From the UHGV virus genome UHGV-0073665: a stretch of 22,092 bases of DNA; one strand, given 5' to 3'. The position numbers and the translations under genes were made by a program. The notes beneath the pieces are model-generated. The model was not told the origin of the DNA, searched no databases, and worked only from the letters and a program-made list of their open reading frames with translations. Numbering within the stretch: position 1 is the first letter of the stretch; each line of letters starts with the position of its first letter. Shown here piece by piece: positions 2,264-15,571 of this stretch. This DNA comes from a virus.

Positions 2264-3163
2264 ATGTCCCAAGAATTATCTTTAACCTTTACCGAAAACA
2301 TATATTATTCAACTAAAGAACCTGTAAGCATCAAAGATGTGATTACCTCCCTTCAAGGGTGGGAGGCCATCGCAAAACAATCAGAAGGTGTTTTGCAGGA
2401 ACTGACAGGGGCTAATATCCTTGATATATCGGTGCATGTTGCGCGATTAGAAGCAGGAAGCCTTTATGAAGATATTGTTATTAAACTCCTCTTTGGTAGC
2501 CAAGAAGAAATGGACAAGTTTCTTGCTGGCGCTCATGCAAAGATCGGAAATGGGAAAATGAGAAACGCTCTCGTTGGTGCTGTTGTTATTGGTCTGGTTG
2601 GATATGGCTTAGTTCTAGCAACTAAGGCTATGGCTCCAAGCAACACCTCCCACTTTGAAGCAAATAACAATACAATCATCAATATTGGTGCCGGTGAGGC
2701 TAATATTTCACCTGACCGTCTTCAAGCAATCATAGAAAGCACGGTAACCAATAAGAAGACTCTTGCCAAAAGTTCCATTAAGACGCTTGCCCCAGCTAGG
2801 GCAGACGAAGGATCTACGATGGTCATAGGTACAGGGGGTGGTACAGTGACCATTCCCGCTGAAACCATTAAAAAAGCCCCAACTGAAGTTGTCTTCACAC
2901 CAGAGTCATATACTCAGGATCATTTTGATGTTGATGTTGAAATCCGTGCATTAGACCTCGACAATCCAGAGAAAGGTTGGGCTGCTGTTATCCCTGGATT
3001 AATAGATCGAAGAGTAAATATGGTTCTTGGCCCCAACGTAAACCCATCAGATTTTGCAGGTAAATTTTCTGTACGTGCTGATATAACAATAACGTACCAG
3101 CTCAAATCATCAGATAAAAAATACCAACCGAAAGAAGTCTTTATAAAAGAAATAATCAAATAA
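2264..3163 (+). CDS. Hypothetical 299-aa protein with one predicted transmembrane helix (~residues 101-123); cargo gene at the rex-equivalent position
   Basis: Co-oriented with and immediately downstream of cI. GAGGG lies 5 nt upstream of the ATG. Followed by an intrinsic terminator. Looks AT-rich by eye relative to flanking genes. Hydrophobic stretch NALVGAVVIGLVGYGLVLATKAMA. No family recognised. Confidence 0.7.
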   Translation: MSQELSLTFTENIYYSTKEPVSIKDVITSLQGWEAIAKQSEGVLQELTGANILDISVHVARLEAGSLYEDIVIKLLFGSQEEMDKFLAGAHAKIGNGKMRNALVGAVVIGLVGYGLVLATKAMAPSNTSHFEANNNTIINIGAGEANISPDRLQAIIESTVTNKKTLAKSSIKTLAPARADEGSTMVIGTGGGTVTIPAETIKKAPTEVVFTPESYTQDHFDVDVEIRALDLDNPEKGWAAVIPGLIDRRVNMVLGPNVNPSDFAGKFSVRADITITYQLKSSDKKYQPKEVFIKEIIK

Positions 3164-5102: not shown

Positions 5103-5453
5103 ATGAGTGAAGTAACAGATTTAGTTGTTATTGAAAAAGCAAATGCAATGACTGTATTTCAGTCTGCCGACCAGATTGAAGAAATTCTCCAAAAGGTTGA
5201 ACGTGAAGTTATGTCATTTGTGCCTGATATCACAACGGCAAAGGGCAGAAAGGAGATCGCTTCTCTGGCGTATAAAGTTGCGCAGACGAAAACATATCTC
5301 GATGGTCTTGGCAAAGACCTTGTTGCTGAACTGAAGGAAATTCCAAAGCTAATTGATGCCAACCGCAAGACAGTGCGCGATCGCCTTGATGAACTGAAAG
5401 CCAAGGCGCGCCAGCCTCTTACTGATTATGAGGAAGAATCAGGCGCGGATTAA
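5103..5453 (+). CDS. Hypothetical protein (116 aa from ATG 5103), possibly the N-terminal part of a split gene
   Basis: GGAGG lies 8 nt upstream of ATG 5103; the track start at 5007 is less likely. Occupies the position between ral and cIII. No family recognised. Confidence 0.5.
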   Translation: MSEVTDLVVIEKANAMTVFQSADQIEEILQKVEREVMSFVPDITTAKGRKEIASLAYKVAQTKTYLDGLGKDLVAELKEIPKLIDANRKTVRDRLDELKAKARQPLTDYEEESGAD

Positions 5454-6072
5454 AGCCGAAGAAGAAGCTAAGGCAGCAGCTGAAGCTCTCGCAAAGCAAA
5501 TTGAGTCTGACCATGAAATAGCGATTTTGATGGATCGCGAATTTGACCGCCAAAGAGAAGAGGCAAGACTCAAAGCGGAGCAGGAAAAGCGAGAGCATGA
5601 AGAACGATTAAAAAGAGAAGCTGAAGAGAAAGCCAGAGCAGAAGCCGAAGCAAAGGCAAAAGCCGAAATTGAAGCAGCAGCAAGGCGAGAAGCAGAAGCT
5701 AAGGCCGCAGCGGAACGTGCAGAGCGTGAACGCATTGAAGCCGAGCAACGAGCACAGCGCGAAGCAAAAGAGGCAGCAGAACGAGCTGAAAGAGAAAAGC
5801 AGGCAGCAATTGAAGCAGAACGCAGAAAAGCACAGGAGGAGGCTGAACGAATCCGTCGCGAGGCTGAAGCAAAAGAGCAAGCCAGAATAGCAGAAGAAAA
5901 AAGAATCAAGGACGAAGAAGAGCGTAGAGCAAAGGATAAAGCTCACCGGAAAGAAGTAAATAACAAAATACTTGCTGACCTTATCAAGGTTGGCGCATCA
6001 GAAGATGTTGCTAAAAATATCATAACAGCCATCGTAAAAGGCGAAGTATTCGCAACAAAAATAACCTACTAA
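5428..6072 (+). CDS. Hypothetical E/K/R/A-rich charged-helix protein (214 aa), possibly the C-terminal part of a split gene
   Basis: Long run of EAKAKAEIEAAARREAEAK-type heptads, then a short C-terminal segment. Overlaps the upstream ORF by 26 nt with no Shine-Dalgarno before its ATG. Confidence 0.45.
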   Translation: MRKNQARIKAEEEAKAAAEALAKQIESDHEIAILMDREFDRQREEARLKAEQEKREHEERLKREAEEKARAEAEAKAKAEIEAAARREAEAKAAAERAERERIEAEQRAQREAKEAAERAEREKQAAIEAERRKAQEEAERIRREAEAKEQARIAEEKRIKDEEERRAKDKAHRKEVNNKILADLIKVGASEDVAKNIITAIVKGEVFATKITY

Positions 6073-6621: not shown

Positions 6622-7227
6622 ATGAGCAAAGAATTTTACGCAAGACTGGCAGCTATTCAGGAGAATCTGAACGCGCCAAAGAATCAGTACAACTCATTCG
6701 GCAAATATAAATACAGAAGCTGCGAAGATATTCTTGAAGGCGTTAAGCCGTTACTGAACGGTCTGTTTTTATCAATCAGCGATGAAGTTGTGTTGATTGG
6801 TGATCGGTATTACGTGAAAGCCACGGCAACTATTACCGATGGCGAAAACAGTCATACGGCAACCGCTCTTGCACGAGAGGAAGAAAGCAAGAAAGGAATG
6901 GATTCTGCACAAGTTACGGGAGCTACAAGCTCTTATGCACGCAAGTATTGCCTCAATGGTTTGTTCGGCATTGATGATGCGAAAGATGCAGATACAGACG
7001 AGCATAAACATCAGCAGAACGCAGCAGCAAAGCAATCAAAACCATCACTTACACCTGAACAGGTTCTAAAAGCATTCACTGACGCAGCAATGCAGAAAAA
7101 CACCGTAGAAGAGCTTAAACAGGCGTTCGCCAAAGCGTGGAAGATGCTCGAAGGGACGCCGGAGCAGCACAAAGCGCAGGACGTTTACAACATCAGACGA
7201 GACGAATTAGAAGGGGCAACTGCTTAA
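6622..7227 (+). CDS. erf: Erf-family single-strand annealing recombinase (P22 Erf-like)
   Basis: From ATG 6622: MSKEFYARLAAIQENLNAPKNQYNSFGKYKYRSCEDILEGVKPLL..., which matches P22 Erf closely from memory. The track start 6592 is TTG. Confidence 0.85.
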   Translation: MSKEFYARLAAIQENLNAPKNQYNSFGKYKYRSCEDILEGVKPLLNGLFLSISDEVVLIGDRYYVKATATITDGENSHTATALAREEESKKGMDSAQVTGATSSYARKYCLNGLFGIDDAKDADTDEHKHQQNAAAKQSKPSLTPEQVLKAFTDAAMQKNTVEELKQAFAKAWKMLEGTPEQHKAQDVYNIRRDELEGATA

Positions 7228-7610
7228 TGGCACATTCGATTACAGTAAGACTAAACAAACCCGCAAGAGAGTTTCAGGGCGGGGAAAATATCGGATTCAA
7301 CATCCGTGCTGGCGTTCAGTATTACGATCGCCAGACAAAAAAGAAAGAATGGACAAACTACAGCGCCGTTGTATTTGCCAAGCCGGGAGCGCAAGCGGAT
7401 TACTATCGTAGCGTTCTGGTTGAAGGAGGCATTGTAGAAATTACCGGAGAAAACATCAGGGTTGATGTTTATCAGGGGCAAAATGGTCAATCAATCACTC
7501 TTGAATTACTGAATGCAAAGATTGGATTTGCAACTTCAGGAAACAGACAACAGCAGCAAAGTAGCAATCATCAAAATAATCCTGAATACGACGATTCCAT
7601 CCCATTCTGA
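7227..7610 (+). CDS. ssb: SSB-like single-stranded DNA-binding protein (short, with acidic C-terminal DDSIPF tail)
   Basis: 127 aa from ATG 7227, overlapping the erf stop (TAATG). C-terminal ...EYDDSIPF resembles the SSB tail motif. Sits next to the recombinase. Confidence 0.55.
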   Translation: MAHSITVRLNKPAREFQGGENIGFNIRAGVQYYDRQTKKKEWTNYSAVVFAKPGAQADYYRSVLVEGGIVEITGENIRVDVYQGQNGQSITLELLNAKIGFATSGNRQQQQSSNHQNNPEYDDSIPF

Positions 7611-10323: not shown

Positions 10324-11016
10324 ATGATGAATTTGATGGTTTTGAATACTGCCGCCAACTATGGCGGCTTTATTTTGCATGGTACTATTACCACAACGGT
10401 AACTATTACCACGGTGGTTATGATGCCTGCTGAACCTAAAGCCTATAAACGCAAATCAACGCAATTTAAGCCACTAACAGCAATGCAGGAGGCTTATTGC
10501 CAGTCATACATCAAAACGCCTGAAAACCAGACTCAGGCAGCGATTAACGCAGGATTCTCCCCAAATACAGCGGCAGTTAAAGCCAGTCTCATGATGCGCG
10601 ATGAACGCATTCAAAAACGGATTGCCGAGCTGATGGAAGAGCGCAACAAACGAATGCGCGTCAGTGCTGATTACGTTCTCATGCGCCTGGTGGAGATCGA
10701 CCAGATGGACGTGATCGACATCCTCAACGACGATGGGAGCCTTAAGCCAATCCGCGAGTGGCCGAAAATCTGGCGCACTACGCTTAGTGGCTTTGATCTG
10801 TCATCGACCATCATGAACATGAACGAGGATTCGATAGAGACAATCCTCAAAAAAATTAAATGGCCTGACAAGGTGAAGAACCTCGAACTGATTGGTAAGC
10901 ACGTCGACGTCAACGCATTCAAAGAACGCCTGGATGTTAATGTGAATGTGACAATTGCTGATCGCATAGCGGCAGCCAGGAAGAGACTGAAAGAACGCCA
11001 GGATGGCAATCAGTGA
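10324..11016 (+). CDS. terS: Terminase small subunit (alternative start ATG 10420)
   Basis: Directly precedes and overlaps TerL. Region ...KAYKRKSTQFKPLTAMQEAYCQSYIKTPENQTQAAINAGFSPNTAAVKA... is typical of the HTH DNA-binding part of small terminases. The Thr/Ile-rich N-terminal extension from 10324 is odd, so the start is uncertain. Confidence 0.65.
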   Translation: MMNLMVLNTAANYGGFILHGTITTTVTITTVVMMPAEPKAYKRKSTQFKPLTAMQEAYCQSYIKTPENQTQAAINAGFSPNTAAVKASLMMRDERIQKRIAELMEERNKRMRVSADYVLMRLVEIDQMDVIDILNDDGSLKPIREWPKIWRTTLSGFDLSSTIMNMNEDSIETILKKIKWPDKVKNLELIGKHVDVNAFKERLDVNVNVTIADRIAAARKRLKERQDGNQ

Positions 11017-12488
11017 CAGATACAGCGTTATCTCCTGAAGAGCAGTTAATCGAGGATATTGCAGGGTTCACTCACGATCCGCTTGGCTATGCCCTCTATG
11101 CGTTCCCGTGGGGGGAAGAGGGTACTGAACTGGCACATGCCACCGGTCCACGTCAGTGGCAGGCCGATGCGTTCCGAGAGATACGTGATCACCTGCAGAA
11201 TCCAGAGACGCGATATCAGCCGCTTATGCTGGCACGTGCTTCTGGTCACGGTATTGGTAAATCCGCATTCATCTCAATGCTGATCAACTGGGGCATGTCC
11301 ACTTGCGAGGATTGTAAGGTCGTGGTGACCGCCAACACCGACAACCAGCTACGAACGAAGACCTGGCCGGAAATTATCAAGTGGTCAAACCTTGCTATCA
11401 CGAAAGACTGGTTTACCTGTACCGCTACCGCGATGTACAGCAATGACCCTGGGCACGACAAGCGGTGGCGAGCTGACGCAATCCCCTGGTCTGAGCACAA
11501 CACTGAGGCATTCGCCGGACTACACAACGAGCGTAAACGCATCATCGTGGTATTTGATGAAGCGTCGAACATTGCGGATCTGGTGTGGGAAGTTGCCGAG
11601 GGTGCGCTAACGGACGAAGACACTGAGATTATCTGGGTGGCTTTCGGAAACCCTACACGTAACACCGGGCGTTTCCGTGAATGTTTCCGCAAATACAAAC
11701 ACCGCTGGAAAACTGCGCAGATTGACAGCAGGACGGTGGAAGGCACCAACAAACAGCAGTTGCAGAAATGGGTTGATGACTATGGGGAAGATAGCGACTT
11801 CGTTAAAATCCGTGTGCGTGGCATATTCCCTGATGCATCTGAATTGCAGTTTATCCCTACCGGTCTTACTGACGAGGCAATGAAACGGGTGGTAACCGCT
11901 GCGCAGGTGGCACATGCTCCGGTGATAATCGGTGTTGACCCGGCATATTCAGGCGTTGATGACGCGGTGATATACCTGCGGCAGGGGCTACACAGTAAGG
12001 TGCTGTGGACTGGCAACAAGACTACCGACGATCTGATTATGGCGAAGCGTATCGCTGACTTTGAAGACCAGTATCAGGCTGACGCGGTGTTCATCGACTT
12101 CGGTTACGGAACCGGTTTGAAGTCAATCGGTGACGGCTGGGGTCGTACATGGCAACTTGTTCCGTTCGGTGGCGCGTCTACTGACCCGCAGATGCTCAAC
12201 AAGCGTGGGGAGATGTTCAACTCATGCAAGACATGGCTGAGGCTCGGCGGCATGCTGGATGACCAGGAAACAGCGGACGACCTGTCGACGGCAGAGTACA
12301 AAGTTCGCGTGGACGGTAAAATCGTTATCGAACCGAAGGAAGATATCAAAGAGCGACTTGGGCGTTCTCCTGGTAAAGGCGATGCGCTACTGCTGACGTT
12401 TGCGTTCCCTGTGTCGAAGCGTCTGCGAATTCCCGGGCAGCAGAACCAGCAAGGCAAAGCCATCACAGACTATGATCCTTTTGCATAA
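11013..12488 (+). CDS. terL: Terminase large subunit (ATPase plus nuclease), GTG start
   Basis: 491 aa. Walker A-like ARASGHGIGKS, Walker B-like IIVVFDEAS, and a C-terminal acidic nuclease-type region. Start overlaps the TerS stop. Confidence 0.88.
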   Translation: MTDTALSPEEQLIEDIAGFTHDPLGYALYAFPWGEEGTELAHATGPRQWQADAFREIRDHLQNPETRYQPLMLARASGHGIGKSAFISMLINWGMSTCEDCKVVVTANTDNQLRTKTWPEIIKWSNLAITKDWFTCTATAMYSNDPGHDKRWRADAIPWSEHNTEAFAGLHNERKRIIVVFDEASNIADLVWEVAEGALTDEDTEIIWVAFGNPTRNTGRFRECFRKYKHRWKTAQIDSRTVEGTNKQQLQKWVDDYGEDSDFVKIRVRGIFPDASELQFIPTGLTDEAMKRVVTAAQVAHAPVIIGVDPAYSGVDDAVIYLRQGLHSKVLWTGNKTTDDLIMAKRIADFEDQYQADAVFIDFGYGTGLKSIGDGWGRTWQLVPFGGASTDPQMLNKRGEMFNSCKTWLRLGGMLDDQETADDLSTAEYKVRVDGKIVIEPKEDIKERLGRSPGKGDALLLTFAFPVSKRLRIPGQQNQQGKAITDYDPFA

Positions 12489-12510
12489 AAAAGCCCGCGA
12501 ATCGGCGGGC
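12487..12510 (-). terminator. Intrinsic terminator oriented for minus-strand transcription (end of the 140-aa ORF unit)
   Basis: Hairpin GCCCGC-gaatcg-GCGGGC at 12493..12510, followed on the minus strand by TTTTTT (plus-strand AAAAAA at 12487..12492). No U-tract on the plus-strand side. Confidence 0.6.
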
Positions 12511-12512
12511 TG

Positions 12513-12528
12513 ATTGTGACATGTCACG
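12513..12528. repeat. 16-bp motif ATTGTGACATGTCACG, copy 2, immediately downstream of TerL
   Basis: Identical to copy 1 at 10296..10311. Confidence 0.7.
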
Positions 12529-12531
12529 GCG

Positions 12532-12954
12532 TTAGAAGGTTATTTTATCGAATGCGGCGTTGATTGCCTTGGCGTCCTGCTCAGCACCAACCACATCAAG
12601 TAAAGATCTTTTACTAAGCACTTCAGCCAGGCATTGTAACTTCATGTTGTATAAGTTTTCGCGCATGTAATCATCATCACTTTTTTCTTTGGCGTATACA
12701 GCGCGAGAAATATCAAACACATTGCCTTTTTCCATTTCAGTTTTCTGCGCTGAAATCCAGTCATGGCAAGTAACTCCTATTCCATGGTCATCGCTAAGCG
12801 TTAACCCGGCCAGTCCCTCACTCTGAATTACTTCGTAATGCATTTCATTACCAGCAAAAACGCCATAAAAAACGCAGTCTTCAGCCTGAACGATACGAGA
12901 ATATTTTAATGGCCATTCATTTAGATACTTAGCCAACATATCAATTGTTTTCAT
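12532..12954 (-). CDS. Hypothetical 140-aa protein on the opposite strand inside the structural module
   Basis: AAGGTGA lies 4 nt upstream of the ATG on the minus strand. Flanked by terminators. No family recognised. Confidence 0.65.
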   Translation of the reverse strand: MKTIDMLAKYLNEWPLKYSRIVQAEDCVFYGVFAGNEMHYEVIQSEGLAGLTLSDDHGIGVTCHDWISAQKTEMEKGNVFDISRAVYAKEKSDDDYMRENLYNMKLQCLAEVLSKRSLLDVVGAEQDAKAINAAFDKITF

Positions 12955-12965
12955 GATCTCACCTT

Positions 12966-12989
12966 AAAAAAATGCCCGGCGAACCGGGC
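12966..12989 (-). terminator. Intrinsic terminator or attenuator (minus strand): GCCCGG-UUCG-CCGGGC hairpin plus U7, directly abutting the RBS of the 140-aa ORF
   Basis: Plus strand shows aaaaaaa then GCCCGGcgaaCCGGGC; on the minus strand this is a hairpin followed by a U-run. Confidence 0.55.
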
Positions 12990-13065
12990 GAACTGGAAGC
13001 AATGAGTTATGCCTTCCGTGGCTGTACGGGTTTACAGCATGAAGTCATCGCAATGGCGTCCTGCT

Positions 13066-13109
13066 GTAAAAAGGGCGGTGATAGTCCTTCAAGGGAAACC
13101 ATCACCGCC
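13066..13109 (-). terminator. Probable intrinsic terminator for the tRNA transcript (minus strand)
   Basis: 9-bp stem GGCGGTGAT/ATCACCGCC at 13074..13109, followed on the minus strand by CTTTTT. Lies ~44 nt downstream of the tRNA 3' end. Confidence 0.5.
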
Positions 13110-13152
13110 AAGCACCTGGAACTTCTGGCATCACGGTCCTTAGGCGTGATTC

Positions 13153-13229
13153 TGGCGTGGCATGCAGGATTCGAACCTGCGACCAACCGCTTAGAAGGCG
13201 GTTGCTCTGTCCAACTGAGCTAATGCCAC
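13153..13229 (-). tRNA. tRNA-Arg (anticodon UCU), 77 nt with encoded CCA
   Basis: Reverse complement is GTGGCATTAGCTCAGTTGGACAGAGCAACCGCCTTCTAAGCGGTTGGTCGCAGGTTCGAATCCTGCATGCCACGCCA. Folds by hand into a cloverleaf: 7-bp acceptor stem, D-stem GCTC/GAGC, anticodon stem ACCGC/GCGGT with loop CTTCTAA, T-arm GCAGG-TTCGAAT-CCTGC. Confidence 0.9.
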
Positions 13230-13656
13230 AACGCTGAGAGCACTTAGCCTGTTAAGGCGCCACACTTTGTCGCGGCTCCATAAATGCTCTCATCGTTGTA
13301 CCCTCGTCTCTTCCGAGGCGTCACACCGAATCGCCGGGATGGTGAATCCCCGTGCGCGGAATAAAACCGCTCGACTTGCACATTCCGGCTACCTGGTTCG
13401 TTTGCCCGAGCAAGGGAGGGTGCCCCTTAAACGTATCCAGACCGCTATCGGCGCATGTGCCATACGCCGTACTGCTCAAAATAAAAGCTCACTCCACCTG
13501 TTTAATTTAACGACAAGCCAGTCAGGTTAGTAACCAGAATGAGCCCTTTGGTTACCTGAAAGGTAATAATTAACGCGTTAAATGTCAACCTTCTACGATA
13601 AATAAATCATATGTGGTTAAATTGGTAATAATTTAATTGCGTACGGAGTCATTGAT

Positions 13657-13863
13657 ATGTGCATGGGTAGCTCACCATCAGTGCCTGCAACACCAGAAGT
13701 TCAGGCAGCACCACAGGAGCAGGATGCCGCCGTTGTTGATGCCCGCGACGAAGAAACACGTCGCCGTCGCGCTGCTGCTGGTCGTAGTTCTACGCTGCTT
13801 ACCGGTTCTCAGGGCGACACATCAACCGCTAATACCAGCGGTAAAACGCTGCTTGGTCAGTAA
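13657..13863 (+). CDS. Possible small Ala/Arg-rich protein (68 aa) immediately upstream of portal
   Basis: GGAG lies 8 nt upstream of the ATG, in a context (CGGAGTCATTGA) duplicated before the portal start. Low-complexity composition, so it may be spurious. Confidence 0.35.
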   Translation: MCMGSSPSVPATPEVQAAPQEQDAAVVDARDEETRRRRAAAGRSSTLLTGSQGDTSTANTSGKTLLGQ

Positions 13864-13877
13864 CCGGAGTCATTGAA

Positions 13878-15571
13878 ATGGCGGAAACAACTAAAGAGCG
13901 ATTGAACAAACAGTTCGCACAACTTGAAAGCGAGCGTCAGTCGTTCGAGCCGCACTGGCGCGAGTTGAGTGATTACATCAACCCGCGTGGTTCCCGCTTT
14001 CTGACTTCTGAAGTCAACCGTAACGATCGACGCAATACACGCATTATTGATTCGACCGGGACTATGGCGGCGCGCACTCTCGCCAGCGGCATGATGTCAG
14101 GCATCACAAGCCCTGCGCGTCCGTGGTTTCGCCTGGCTACGCCAGATCCTGAAATGATGGATTATGGTCCTGTTAAGTTGTGGCTCGAGGCGGTGCAGAA
14201 CCGCATGAACGATATGTTCAATAAGTCGAATCTCTACCAGTCTCTTCCGCAGTTATACGGAAGCCTCGGCACATACAGCACTGGTGCAATGGCGGTGCTG
14301 GAGGATGACGAGGAATACCAGAACCCGGTGGATCTGCTGTTTGAAGAACTGGCAAAAAAGAAGCCCAACTCCTTTGCCGGGCGGCAGTACAAACTTTACA
14401 AGCTGGCCGCAGGCAAAACCGCAAAATCAATCCTCATTTCTTGCGGTGCGGGCTAAATAACGTCAGCGAATCCGTAAAAAGCATGTGGGAAAGCGGCACC
14501 TACGAGAAGTGGATTGAAGTGATGCATTCGGTTTACCCGAACATTGACCGCGATACATCGAAGCTGGATAGCAAGAACAAGCCATTCAAATCGGTTTATT
14601 ACGAGGTTGGTGGCGATAACGACAAGTTGTTGCGTGAGTCCGGATTCGATGAGTTTCCAATTATGGCTCCGCGCTGGGAAGTTAACGGCGAAGATGTTTA
14701 TGGATCATCATGCCCGGGTATGCTGGCGCTTGGACCTGTTAAGGCATTGCAGCTTCTCCAGAAGCGCAAGTCGCAGTTGATTGATAAAGCCACCAATCCG
14801 CCGATGGTTGCTCCGACTTCCCTCAAGAATCAGCGTGCCTCCCTTCTTCCTGGCGACATCACGTATATCGATCAGATTACTGGTCAGGATGGTTTCAGGC
14901 CTGCTTATCTGGTTAACCCCAGTACAGCAGATTTGGTGGCAGACATTCAGGACACTCGTCAAATCATTAACAGCGCCTACTTTGTCGATCTGTTCATGAT
15001 GTTGCAGAACATCAATACCCGCTCGATGCCTGTTGAAGCGGTGATCGAAATGAAAGAAGAAAAACTTCTGATGTTGGGGCCGGTTCTGGAGCGTCTGAAC
15101 GACGAATGTCTTAATCCTCTCATTGACCGCTCTTTCTCGATGATGGTGCGTAAAAACATGCTGCCGCCACCGCCAGACGTGATGGAAGGTATGCCCCTGA
15201 AGGTCGAATACATTTCCGTCATGGCTCAGGCGCAGAAGTCTATCGGCCTGTCCAGTCTGGCGTCCACGGTTAACTTCATTGGTCAACTTGCGCAAGCGAA
15301 ACCAGAAGCTCTCGACAAACTCAACGTTGATCAGGCGATCGATGCATTCGCTGATATGTCCGGAGTGTCTCCAACCGTCATTGTTCCGCAGGAACAGGTT
15401 GAGCAGGCTCGCCAGCAACGGGCACAGCAGCAACAGCAGCAACAAATGATGGCGATGGGGATGGCGGCGGCACAGGGTGCCAAGACGCTAAGCGAAGCTA
15501 AAACTTCGGATCCGAGTGTTTTGTCAGCTATGGCGAATGCAGTTAGTGGTCAGGGTGGGCAATCACAATGA
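13878..15571 (+). CDS. Portal protein (T7 gp8-like podovirus connector), reading frame interrupted: ORFs 13878..14456 and 14441..15571
   Basis: N-terminal and Q-rich C-terminal regions (...QQRAQQQQQQQMMAMGMAAAQG...) resemble T7 gp8 from memory. The second frame is open from 14345. The A6 run at 14354..14359 (A_AAA_AAG in the zero frame) lies in the overlap zone. Confidence 0.75.

Follow-up and report, generated by a model that had tools for sequence, protein, structure and literature searches.

A conserved structured RNA, a candidate antiterminator, in the leftward unit between the terminase and portal operons of phiV10/epsilon15-like phages

What is a stretch of leftward sequence doing between two rightward operons of a phage, and which part of it is being conserved? 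We asked this for the UHGV virus genome UHGV-0073665, of which a stretch of 22,092 nucleotides (nt) was analysed (the window in what follows). The window comes from a phiV10/epsilon15-like podophage or prophage of the genus Uetakevirus. In phages of this type the terS-terL operon and the gp3-portal operon are separated by a gap, and a unit that is read leftward fills it. An original prediction, made from the sequence of the window, had described here an opposite-strand island with a tRNA-Arg(UCU), three terminators and an open reading frame (ORF) of 140 amino acids (aa), and had seen it as an interruption of the late operon. An opposite-strand unit is indeed present, but it sits in the gap between two operons and has its own regulatory region, and it reaches further to the right than had been thought. 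It covers about 1.1 kb, from about 13588 to 12487, and the features noted before are its downstream two-thirds. The most conserved and most unusual part of the unit is absent from that description. It is a structured RNA (13230..13474, minus strand, as are all features of the unit below unless stated otherwise), 245 nt long with 57.6% G+C, which lies between a candidate promoter and the tRNA. We refer to it as the core RNA; it is a pseudoknotted RNA of an undescribed family and is supported by covariation.

An alignment of 24 diverse copies of the core RNA showed an invariant stretch of 19 nt, GGUAGCCGGAAUGUGCAAG (13393..13375), and several helices. These are the hairpin P1 (13469..13449), the helix P2, after which the invariant 19-mer follows, a variable hairpin P3 between GGUAGCCGGAAUGUGCAAG and the next hairpin, P4a (13351..13336), whose loop pairs with a downstream GGUG to form the pseudoknot, the hairpin P5 (13318..13302) with the loop GAAGAGA, and the long-range helix P6, in which 13297..13285 pairs with 13242..13230. 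In a covariation test of P1, P2, P4a, the pseudoknot and P5, 96.6% of the cells were paired and 11 pairs were changed on both sides (in 62 cells), and none of 500 shuffles was as good. As a control, the partners were slid by one to three columns, which gave a pairing of 28-48%. For P6 the compensation was read from the alignment; the helix is fully compensated in several lineages (e.g. GAGAGCA/UGCUCUC vs AAGGGUG/CAUCCUU). The frequent G-U pairs fit the minus strand of the window only. On the basis of the covariation with its controls and of the compensation in P6, the core RNA is real and is read from the minus strand. A covariance model of it, R1, scores 157.8 bits at 13294..13474(-) and finds exactly one copy per phage, with epsilon15 holding a remnant only.

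We considered several other readings of the same region. A long-range pairing of GCACAU with the invariant AUGUGC, given by RNAalifold, was rejected as the main structure, because P1 shows compensatory changes while the alternative involves invariant bases only. The complementarity as such is there: the loop and 3' strand of P1 (GCACAU, 13449..13469) can pair with AUGUGC in the invariant 19-mer (13375..13393) on the minus strand. A second conformation of this kind is possible; both of its sides are invariant, so it is beyond the reach of covariation. Two ORFs that run over the core RNA, 13267..13530(+) and 13321..13479(-), were rejected as genes, because relatives differ by indels whose lengths are not multiples of three and because changes within helices are compensatory. 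A scan of 12450..13700 and of the corresponding mEp460 region against Rfam, at gathering thresholds and also at E <= 10, gave no family that matches the core RNA. Only the tRNA was matched truly, and the weak matches (Trp leader over the terminator T3, RyhB over the terminator T2) were terminator look-alikes. The Pas small RNAs of prophages of enteropathogenic and enterohaemorrhagic Escherichia coli belong to a different locus, in the Q/lysis region. In the open-access full-text literature (subscription journals may describe the RNA) the invariant 19-mer occurs in no paper, and searches for phiV10/epsilon15, SPC32H, mEp460 and tRNA-like prophage RNAs turned up nothing on the core RNA. A 14-nt sub-string of the 19-mer gave two matches, both in papers on C. 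elegans.

Where else does this RNA occur? At about 80-83% identity it is found in lambdoid phages (mEp460, cdtI, 2H10 and Stx2c, Stx2k and Stx2a phages) as well as in P1, P7 and P1-like phages, and weaker matches come from phages of Klebsiella, Enterobacter, Salmonella and Stenotrophomonas. It is present in at least 120 IMG/VR contigs and in 1840 of 5426 complete E. coli genomes, and no annotated feature lies under the match in the 40 E. coli records listed. Plasmids account for 554 of the E. coli matches; among the matches listed, plasmid-sized records match the same part of the query as P1 does. A pattern search with the invariant 19-mer gave 24 stretches in a collection with one genome per species. 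One of these, on an Oscillospiraceae contig (L141), is a chance match. From the remaining ones 15 were aligned, the rest being unchecked, and the aligned loci are from Enterobacterales, including Kosakonia, Phytobacter, Citrobacter, Kluyvera, Klebsiella, Buttiauxella, Pseudescherichia, Superficieibacter and Candidatus Erwinia.

The genomic contexts have a common feature. In the lambdoids the core RNA begins about 35 nt after a predicted pL promoter with operator-like repeats, immediately to the left of a cI-like gene. A homologue of T1, the first terminator of the window unit, follows it, then a second hairpin-plus-U element, and then the first gene of the early-left operon, which encodes a 120-aa protein without a match in Pfam; YfdQ, YfdR and further genes down to xis come next. 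The lambdoids that have the core RNA carry no annotated N gene. The promoter pL is repressed in lysogens. Four further species (E. whittamii, Kosakonia quasisacchari, Pseudescherichia vulneris and Citrobacter braakii) have the core RNA at the same position, 180-370 nt after a gene on the same strand that encodes a repressor with a helix-turn-helix (HTH) or an HTH plus S24 domain, which makes five species with this spacing, and in Citrobacter braakii the gene after the RNA is that of an excisionase. In phage P1 (NC_005856, 71023..71191) a core with helices P1 to P5 only lies in an unannotated stretch between trnI and ban, in the C1-controlled ban operon, and a C1 operator at Pban is annotated in the record. 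P7 and P1-like plasmids also carry the RNA between trnI and ban, again in an unannotated stretch. As far as sequence and annotation tell, the Uetakevirus, lambdoid and P1 contexts are thus all transcripts from repressor-controlled promoters.

In the window the core RNA is followed by the tRNA-Arg(UCU) (13153..13229), which starts at the base that follows P6. The tRNA had been predicted correctly: ARAGORN reports it, with the anticodon tct, as the single tRNA of the window, it scores 73.3 bits against the Rfam tRNA family RF00005 (threshold 29), and its CCA is encoded in the sequence. Around 126 copies of the core RNA we find 31 with a tRNA-Arg(UCU) directly 3', 27 of the P1 type with a tRNA directly 5' (Met(cat) according to ARAGORN, annotated in P1 as trnI, tRNA-Ile2) and 68 with no tRNA. 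In the tRNA-less copies the same position is taken by a tRNA-like domain. Its 5' side is formed by UUGUGGUGAAU; then come a D-like hairpin, a variable insert and a T-like hairpin (CCGG-AGAUCAGCA-CCGG), and CACCACAAC closes the acceptor-like stem. In two of the loci the T-arm is canonical. A covariation test of the acceptor/T minihelix, on ten diverse sequences from which the variable insert had been removed by hand, found 94.6% of the cells paired and 8 pairs changed on both sides, and none of 500 shuffles did as well. The minimal substrate of RNase P is an acceptor/T minihelix, and we therefore infer a cut at 13229/13230, which would free the core RNA from the tRNA. The 5' end of the tRNA, as the expected RNase P site, would then also form the 3' end of the core RNA.

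The gene argO of the Stx phages has the same anticodon and the same presumed role in decoding the rare codon AGA. Unlike other phage tRNA-Arg(UCU) genes, the tRNA of the window occupies a position that is held in many homologous units by a minihelix that is not a tRNA; as a processing signal it may therefore be just as important as in decoding. The tRNA is followed, ahead of T1, by a conserved stretch, AAUCACGCCUAAGGACCGUGAU (13130..13151). The same sequence comes after the tRNA-like domain in loci of Salmonella, Enterobacter, Erwinia, Kluyvera and Klebsiella. A hairpin was read in it by eye and was not reproduced when the window copy was folded (z = -0.3, not significant).

Three hairpins with U-runs, all at the sites that had been described, including the one with the UUCG loop and U7 and the distance of 44 nt between the tRNA and the first of them, fit the definition of intrinsic terminators, i.e. 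a G+C-rich hairpin immediately followed by a U-run. T1 (13068..13109) is a 14-bp stem (13109..13074) followed by CUUUUUAC, with the U-run extending to 13068; its folding energy is -22.8 kcal/mol (z -6.4 vs shuffles). T2 (12966..12989) has the form GCCCGG-UUCG-CCGGGC followed by AU7 (-12.7 kcal/mol, z -3.0), and T3 (12487..12511), which closes the unit directly after the stop codon of TerL, has -13.7 kcal/mol (z -3.5). The raw count of hairpin-plus-U elements on the minus strand, 3 found vs 1.9 expected in shuffles, is not significant by itself. Better evidence is that T1 and T2 are kept in sequence and position across genera. The script used to look for terminators misses stems with long loops; its counts are lower bounds and were not used as statistics. 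A T1 homologue (UUGGCGG...CCGCC-U5-AC) follows the RNA unit in the lambdoid and in other loci, and the arrangement of T2, U-run, AAGGUGA and ATG is identical before unrelated ORFs in epsilon15 and in an Enterobacter prophage. The spacer between T1 and T2 (12990..13067; fold z-score -1.9) is conserved in the same two.

Two observations on the neighbourhood of T1 can be added. In epsilon15 (2650..2726 of locus L006) the RNA has been lost from the P2 loop through the 5' half of T1, including the position of the tRNA, and both ends of this deletion lie at the motif UUCCCUUGA, which is present in the loop of T1 and, in copies of the Salmonella type, also in that of P2. Downstream of T1 in loci of the lambdoid type there is a conserved GAGAGCAUCACCGG-CGACGGGCUCAUAACCCAAUCCA-CCGGGCGGC in a long hairpin that ends in a U-run (2700..2815 of L004, minus strand; also L136 and L148).

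What drives transcription of the unit? A consensus scan of 12300..13800 found no promoter-like site, and thus gave none between T1 and the ORF. A candidate sigma-70 promoter is nevertheless present at 13560..13588, with the -35 element TTGACA (13588..13583), a 17-nt spacer and the -10 element TACCTT (13565..13560). It had not been reported by the scan because the -10 element matches the consensus at only 3 of 6 positions. The pattern TTGACA-N17-TACC(T/C)T recurs at the corresponding position of epsilon15, SPN1S, PAT1, Tyrion, an Enterobacter prophage and a Klebsiella phage, the last with TTGACC, and the sequence of the spacer varies. The putative -10 element and start site are covered by a palindrome, TTACCTGAAAGGTAA (13552..13566), which matches ATTACC-N5-GGTAAT. 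The record of epsilon15 annotates seven sites of this form as repressor-binding, three of which adjoin its repressor gene. A pattern search in the window gave 3 sites vs 0.34 expected. Since the only conserved promoter candidate is overlapped by a palindrome that is annotated as a repressor site, we infer from the sequence and from this annotation that the leftward unit is repressed in lysogens. The other two sites are tandem palindromes at 10388..10402 and 10406..10420 (TTACCACAACGGTAA and TTACCACGGTGGTTA), between a terminator and the start codon of terS, and terS-terL is therefore apparently under the same regulator. From the presumed start site to the core RNA runs a 5' leader (13475..13555), which is poorly conserved in sequence and has a fold z-score of -1.6 (not significant).

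The order of the unit is thus candidate promoter with palindrome, RNA of about 240 nt, tRNA-Arg(UCU) or tRNA-like minihelix, short conserved stretch, T1, spacer, T2 and ribosome site. This scaffold is kept across genera and in nearly all relatives, and only the ORF after the start codon varies. The ribosome site AAGGUGA with the ATG (12952..12965) comes directly after the U-run of T2, and the homology to relatives with other genes stops at 12950..12966 of the window, i.e. at the start codon. When the junction was compared in relatives, it was empty in none of the Uetakeviruses examined; all of them have a leftward unit, and the protein gene in it differs. We find at least seven different genes between TerL and gp3. 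The window, PAS61 and HEMP4 have the 140-aa family (PHROG 4846), phiV10 and epsilon15 a PF13876 protein (N4 gp49/Sf6 gp66 family), TL-2011b a 115-aa protein (PHROG 3163), PAT1 a 143-aa protein and SPN1S a 64-aa protein. Tyrion has three small genes, including one for a DUF551 protein, and the Klebsiella phage ST512-KPC3phi13.3 has a 173-aa protein with a Tad2-like Thoeris anti-defence domain (E = 4e-26). A conserved scaffold with a differing protein gene is a cargo slot, and the expectation that the opposite-strand gene is accessory cargo was right: it is exchangeable, with unrelated genes at exactly the same point in relatives.

The 140-aa ORF (12532..12954) starts with ATG, five bases after AAGGTGA. 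We take it as a real gene because it matches PHROG 4846 from end to end (E = 1e-91, residues 1-140 on profile positions 1-140 of 140) and because it has 107 homologues of 134-143 aa, confined to Enterobacteriaceae; the well-initiated ORF of the original prediction is thus not a sequence without relatives. Its G+C content is 40.2%, vs 53.5% for TerL. Among 1.84 billion proteins the family forms 33 clusters at 50% identity. Divergent members from Enterobacter cloacae (42% identity) and Salmonella (58%) are in the same slot behind the same scaffold, and members are again directly downstream of the RNA in loci of Citrobacter braakii and C. werkmanii. An AlphaFold model, which reached a pLDDT of 84.7 with a more diverse alignment (62 with the first one), predicts an N-terminal helix-sheet-helix domain (1-75), a disordered linker and a C-terminal helical hairpin (93-137). 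The hairpin module is also found on other N-terminal domains (Tyrion gp53, P0121 and P0122). The profile and structure searches that had been proposed for this protein gave no relative of known function, by sequence or by fold: there is no Pfam match at E <= 1 and no match to a PADLOC model, profile searches of the PDB and of the 1.84 billion proteins link it to no known family, a Foldseek search of the model against the PDB gave nothing (E > 3), and a search of BFVD with it gave unnamed phage proteins only.

Defence and anti-defence had been suggested as functions of the cargo. The window ORF matches no PADLOC model of known anti-phage defence proteins. An anti-defence role is reasonable by position, given the Tad2-like domain in the slot of one relative. 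Tad2 (DUF2829, PF11195) is thus found, in the form of a Tad2-like protein, in the identical slot of ST512-KPC3phi13.3, but the 140-aa protein has neither a Tad2 domain nor detectable similarity to it. Together with the apparent repressor control, the analogy to this relative suggests that the 140-aa protein may serve counter-defence in the lytic cycle.

How would such a cargo be expressed? No promoter-like site was found for the cargo alone, and its ribosome site adjoins the U-run of T2; its expression should therefore depend entirely on polymerases that get past T1 and T2. Behind the same T1, the lambdoids have a whole early-left operon. In epsilon15 the core RNA and T1 have been lost together and T2 and the cargo have been kept, which we count in favour of read-through. 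Our preferred explanation, to which we give somewhat less than an even chance, is that the core RNA acts in cis and carries the polymerase through T1 and T2 into the cargo gene. The leftward unit would be silent in the lysogen and would fire upon infection or induction. Most transcripts would end at T1, and a cut by RNase P at the 5' end of the tRNA would separate the core RNA from the tRNA, which would decode AGA, a codon about three times commoner in the genes of this phage than in the average of E. coli. The core RNA would modify the polymerase that made it, being put-like in function, so that a fraction of the polymerases would pass T1 and T2 and the cargo would be expressed. The 140-aa cargo would then be an accessory protein of the lytic cycle, most plausibly directed at host defence.

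RNAs of the HK022 put type act in cis, without protein factors, through the beta-prime zinc-binding domain. In HK022, putL follows closely after PL and overcomes terminators with no protein involved (PMC9378689), and Casjens and colleagues describe N-less lambdoids in which a put-like mechanism could only be guessed (PMC12315714). The likeness to HK022 put and to the putL-like RNA of HK639 is that the lambdoid core RNA, too, comes directly after the early-left promoter and before terminators and early genes, with no N annotated. We find it in this position in mEp460, cdtI, WGPS2 and four further species, and in the window the equivalent of that promoter is the candidate at 13560..13588. On the other hand, the core RNA shows no similarity to putL or putR, BLAST finds nothing like it in the HK022 immunity region or in HK639, and R1 has no hit in either phage. 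HK022 put has about 70 nt with two stem-loops and occurs in two copies per phage, whereas the core RNA has about 240 nt with six helices and a pseudoknot, is followed by a tRNA or tRNA-like domain, and occurs once. Unlike put, it is also found outside the lambdoids, in Uetakeviruses and P1, and antitermination by it is a candidate function only.

Several points weigh against antitermination in cis. The promoter, the function of the operator, the cutting by RNase P and the read-through are all deduced from sequence, and the -10 element of the candidate promoter agrees with the consensus in just half of its six positions. The conservation of T1 as a part of the unit would also fit a free-standing gene for an RNA that acts in trans. 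In P1 a terminator between the RNA and ban was looked for and not found, so that a need for antitermination is not evident in that phage. Most of the core RNA is missing from epsilon15, for which the RNA is therefore dispensable. The analogy to put is one of position, with no similarity to put of HK022 or HK639 and an RNA three times larger. A polymerase that has become resistant to termination should ignore T3 as well and run antisense into terL. As for the cargo, no relative of known function was detected for the 140-aa protein, whether by sequence or by fold, and its putative anti-defence role is argued from the cargo of one relative in the same slot.

Potentially, the core RNA could be a stable RNA that acts in trans, with ends that are set by T1 and by RNase P at the 5' end of the tRNA or tRNA-like domain, and bind or mimic a conserved component of the host (e.g. 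a defence nuclease, an RNA-processing enzyme or RNA polymerase), T1 and T2 being genuine ends and the cargo receiving leak-through transcription only. We regard this as unlikely, though as the main rival: it would make sense of T1 as a conserved part of the unit and of the fact that a tRNA or an acceptor/T minihelix is found beside the core in every case (in P1 a tRNA immediately 5'), and a 19-nt stretch that is invariant in at least 12 genera suggests binding to a conserved host molecule. There are also precedents, as c4 of P1 and P7 and CI of P4 are phage regulatory RNAs processed by RNase P. Like the core RNA, they (C4 in Rfam, RF01695) are structured RNAs in a repressor-controlled transcript beside a tRNA or tRNA-like substrate of RNase P, but the core RNA is much larger, a permissive cmscan of 12450..13700 and of the mEp460 region gave no match to C4 at E <= 10, and c4 of P1 is not known to lie in the ban operon, where P1 carries the core RNA. 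An RNA that acts in trans also leaves unexplained why a cargo with no promoter-like site of its own is fused to the U-run of T2 and how the early-left operon of the N-less lambdoids passes T1. The same positional logic as for cis-antitermination would hold if the core RNA were a loading platform, similar to nut or qut, for a phage antiterminator protein or another RNA-binding regulator, and did not itself act on the polymerase. Within the 3' strand of P6 there is a UGCUCU, similar to the beginning of boxA; yet this stretch is base-paired in P6, with compensatory changes, no gene lies between promoter and terminators in any of the contexts, and Uetakeviruses, lambdoids and P1 share no obvious regulator. 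We therefore find a loading platform improbable.

Two further alternatives remain. The unit might be an ordinary moron, i.e. a tRNA for codon supply and an unrelated gene with leaky transcription or weak promoters of their own, with nothing more than a promoter and an untranslated region upstream. The term moron is used as by Hendrix and Casjens, whose definition is quoted in PMC3573123, and morons between structural operons are well known (PMC3573123). The cargo does resemble one: it is a variable gene of low G+C content on the opposite strand between conserved structural operons, it is closed by a terminator, and some relatives have it while others have a different gene at that position. tRNA-Arg(UCU) genes are also common in temperate coliphages, and AGA is enriched here. 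However, the cargo differs from a moron in having no promoter-like site of its own, being plugged in at the start codon behind a scaffold of RNA, tRNA and terminators, and the shared promoter candidate is apparently repressor-controlled and not active in lysogens. Compensatory changes in five helices, the pseudoknot and P6 are inexplicable at the level of DNA or of a promoter, and the same RNA is found without any tRNA in lambdoids, Tyrion and PAT1, which makes the ordinary moron quite improbable to us. Lysogenic conversion, i.e. expression from the prophage, had also been suggested for the unit, and opposite-strand cargo of low G+C content with its own terminator would suit it. We consider it the least probable of all, and very unlikely, since the palindrome annotated in epsilon15 as the site of the prophage repressor lies over the one conserved candidate promoter, and since the homologous RNA is part of the pL and Pban transcripts, both of which are repressed in lysogens.

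Returning to cis-antitermination, one may ask how far it extends. A wider reading, which we find doubtful as a whole, would be that the core RNA is a new class of self-sufficient processive antiterminators, released by RNase P from a tRNA or tRNA-like handle, which replaces N in a large group of lambdoids that have neither N nor put and has been reused by Uetakeviruses and, in the ban operon, by P1. In Uetakeviruses it would drive plug-in counter-defence cargo through the two terminators, and about a third of complete E. coli genomes would carry such an RNA unannotated. If the core RNA is an antiterminator, it would explain the early-left expression in many lambdoid prophages without N or put, a gap that was still pointed out in 2025 (PMC12315714), and it would be a second, structurally unrelated RNA that reprograms the bacterial RNA polymerase. 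Whatever its function, the family is widespread, in chromosomes as well as in plasmids including P1-like ones, and current annotation leaves it blank or covers it with spurious ORFs. The fixed scaffold with a swappable ORF gives a handle to search for candidate accessory or anti-defence genes of the lytic cycle. A tRNA gene as the functional equivalent of a processing handle may furthermore explain some of the puzzling single tRNA genes in temperate phages.

As regards decoding, AGA makes up 6.8 per 1000 codons in the ORFs of the window; in E. coli it is roughly 2 per 1000. The AGA codons are concentrated in non-structural ORFs, with none in TerL, portal or major capsid genes. The ORFs 5428..6072 (9 of 215 codons) and 7137..7610 (5 of 158 codons) are rich in AGA and are the likeliest clients of the phage tRNA-Arg(UCU), which is plausibly useful for decoding this codon.

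Several ORFs that public records annotate as genes overlap the structured RNA or the tRNA/T1 region, either on the opposite strand or by running across it: PhiV10p04, TL-2011b gp24, mEp460 gp36 and gp37, and cdtI orf40. The positions of such overlapping ORFs are 12972..13223 (+) in the window, 2672..2923 in L002, 3007..3258 in L003, 2749..3302 in L004 and 3504..3959 in L158. They are probably spurious.

The unit is flanked on the left by TerL (11013..12488, plus strand) and on the right by the rightward gp3 (13657..13863, 68 aa), after which the portal follows. Over its full length, the region 12400..13700 shares 95.6% identity with Escherichia phage PAS61; with phiV10 and its close relatives the identity is 96-97% across about two-thirds of it. 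The portal gene of the window (13878..15571) consists of two ORFs that overlap, 13878..14456 and 14441..15571. It contains a patch of about 133 nt (roughly 14315..14447) that is missing from the portal genes of phiV10 and PAS61 and shifts the frame; the prophage is possibly defective, or the assembly possibly wrong at this point. In PAS61 (OQ921333, 4493..6700) the portal is annotated as a 735-aa 'head-to-tail connector' that is lengthened by an internal direct duplication of 528 nt of portal sequence, which may be an assembly artefact.

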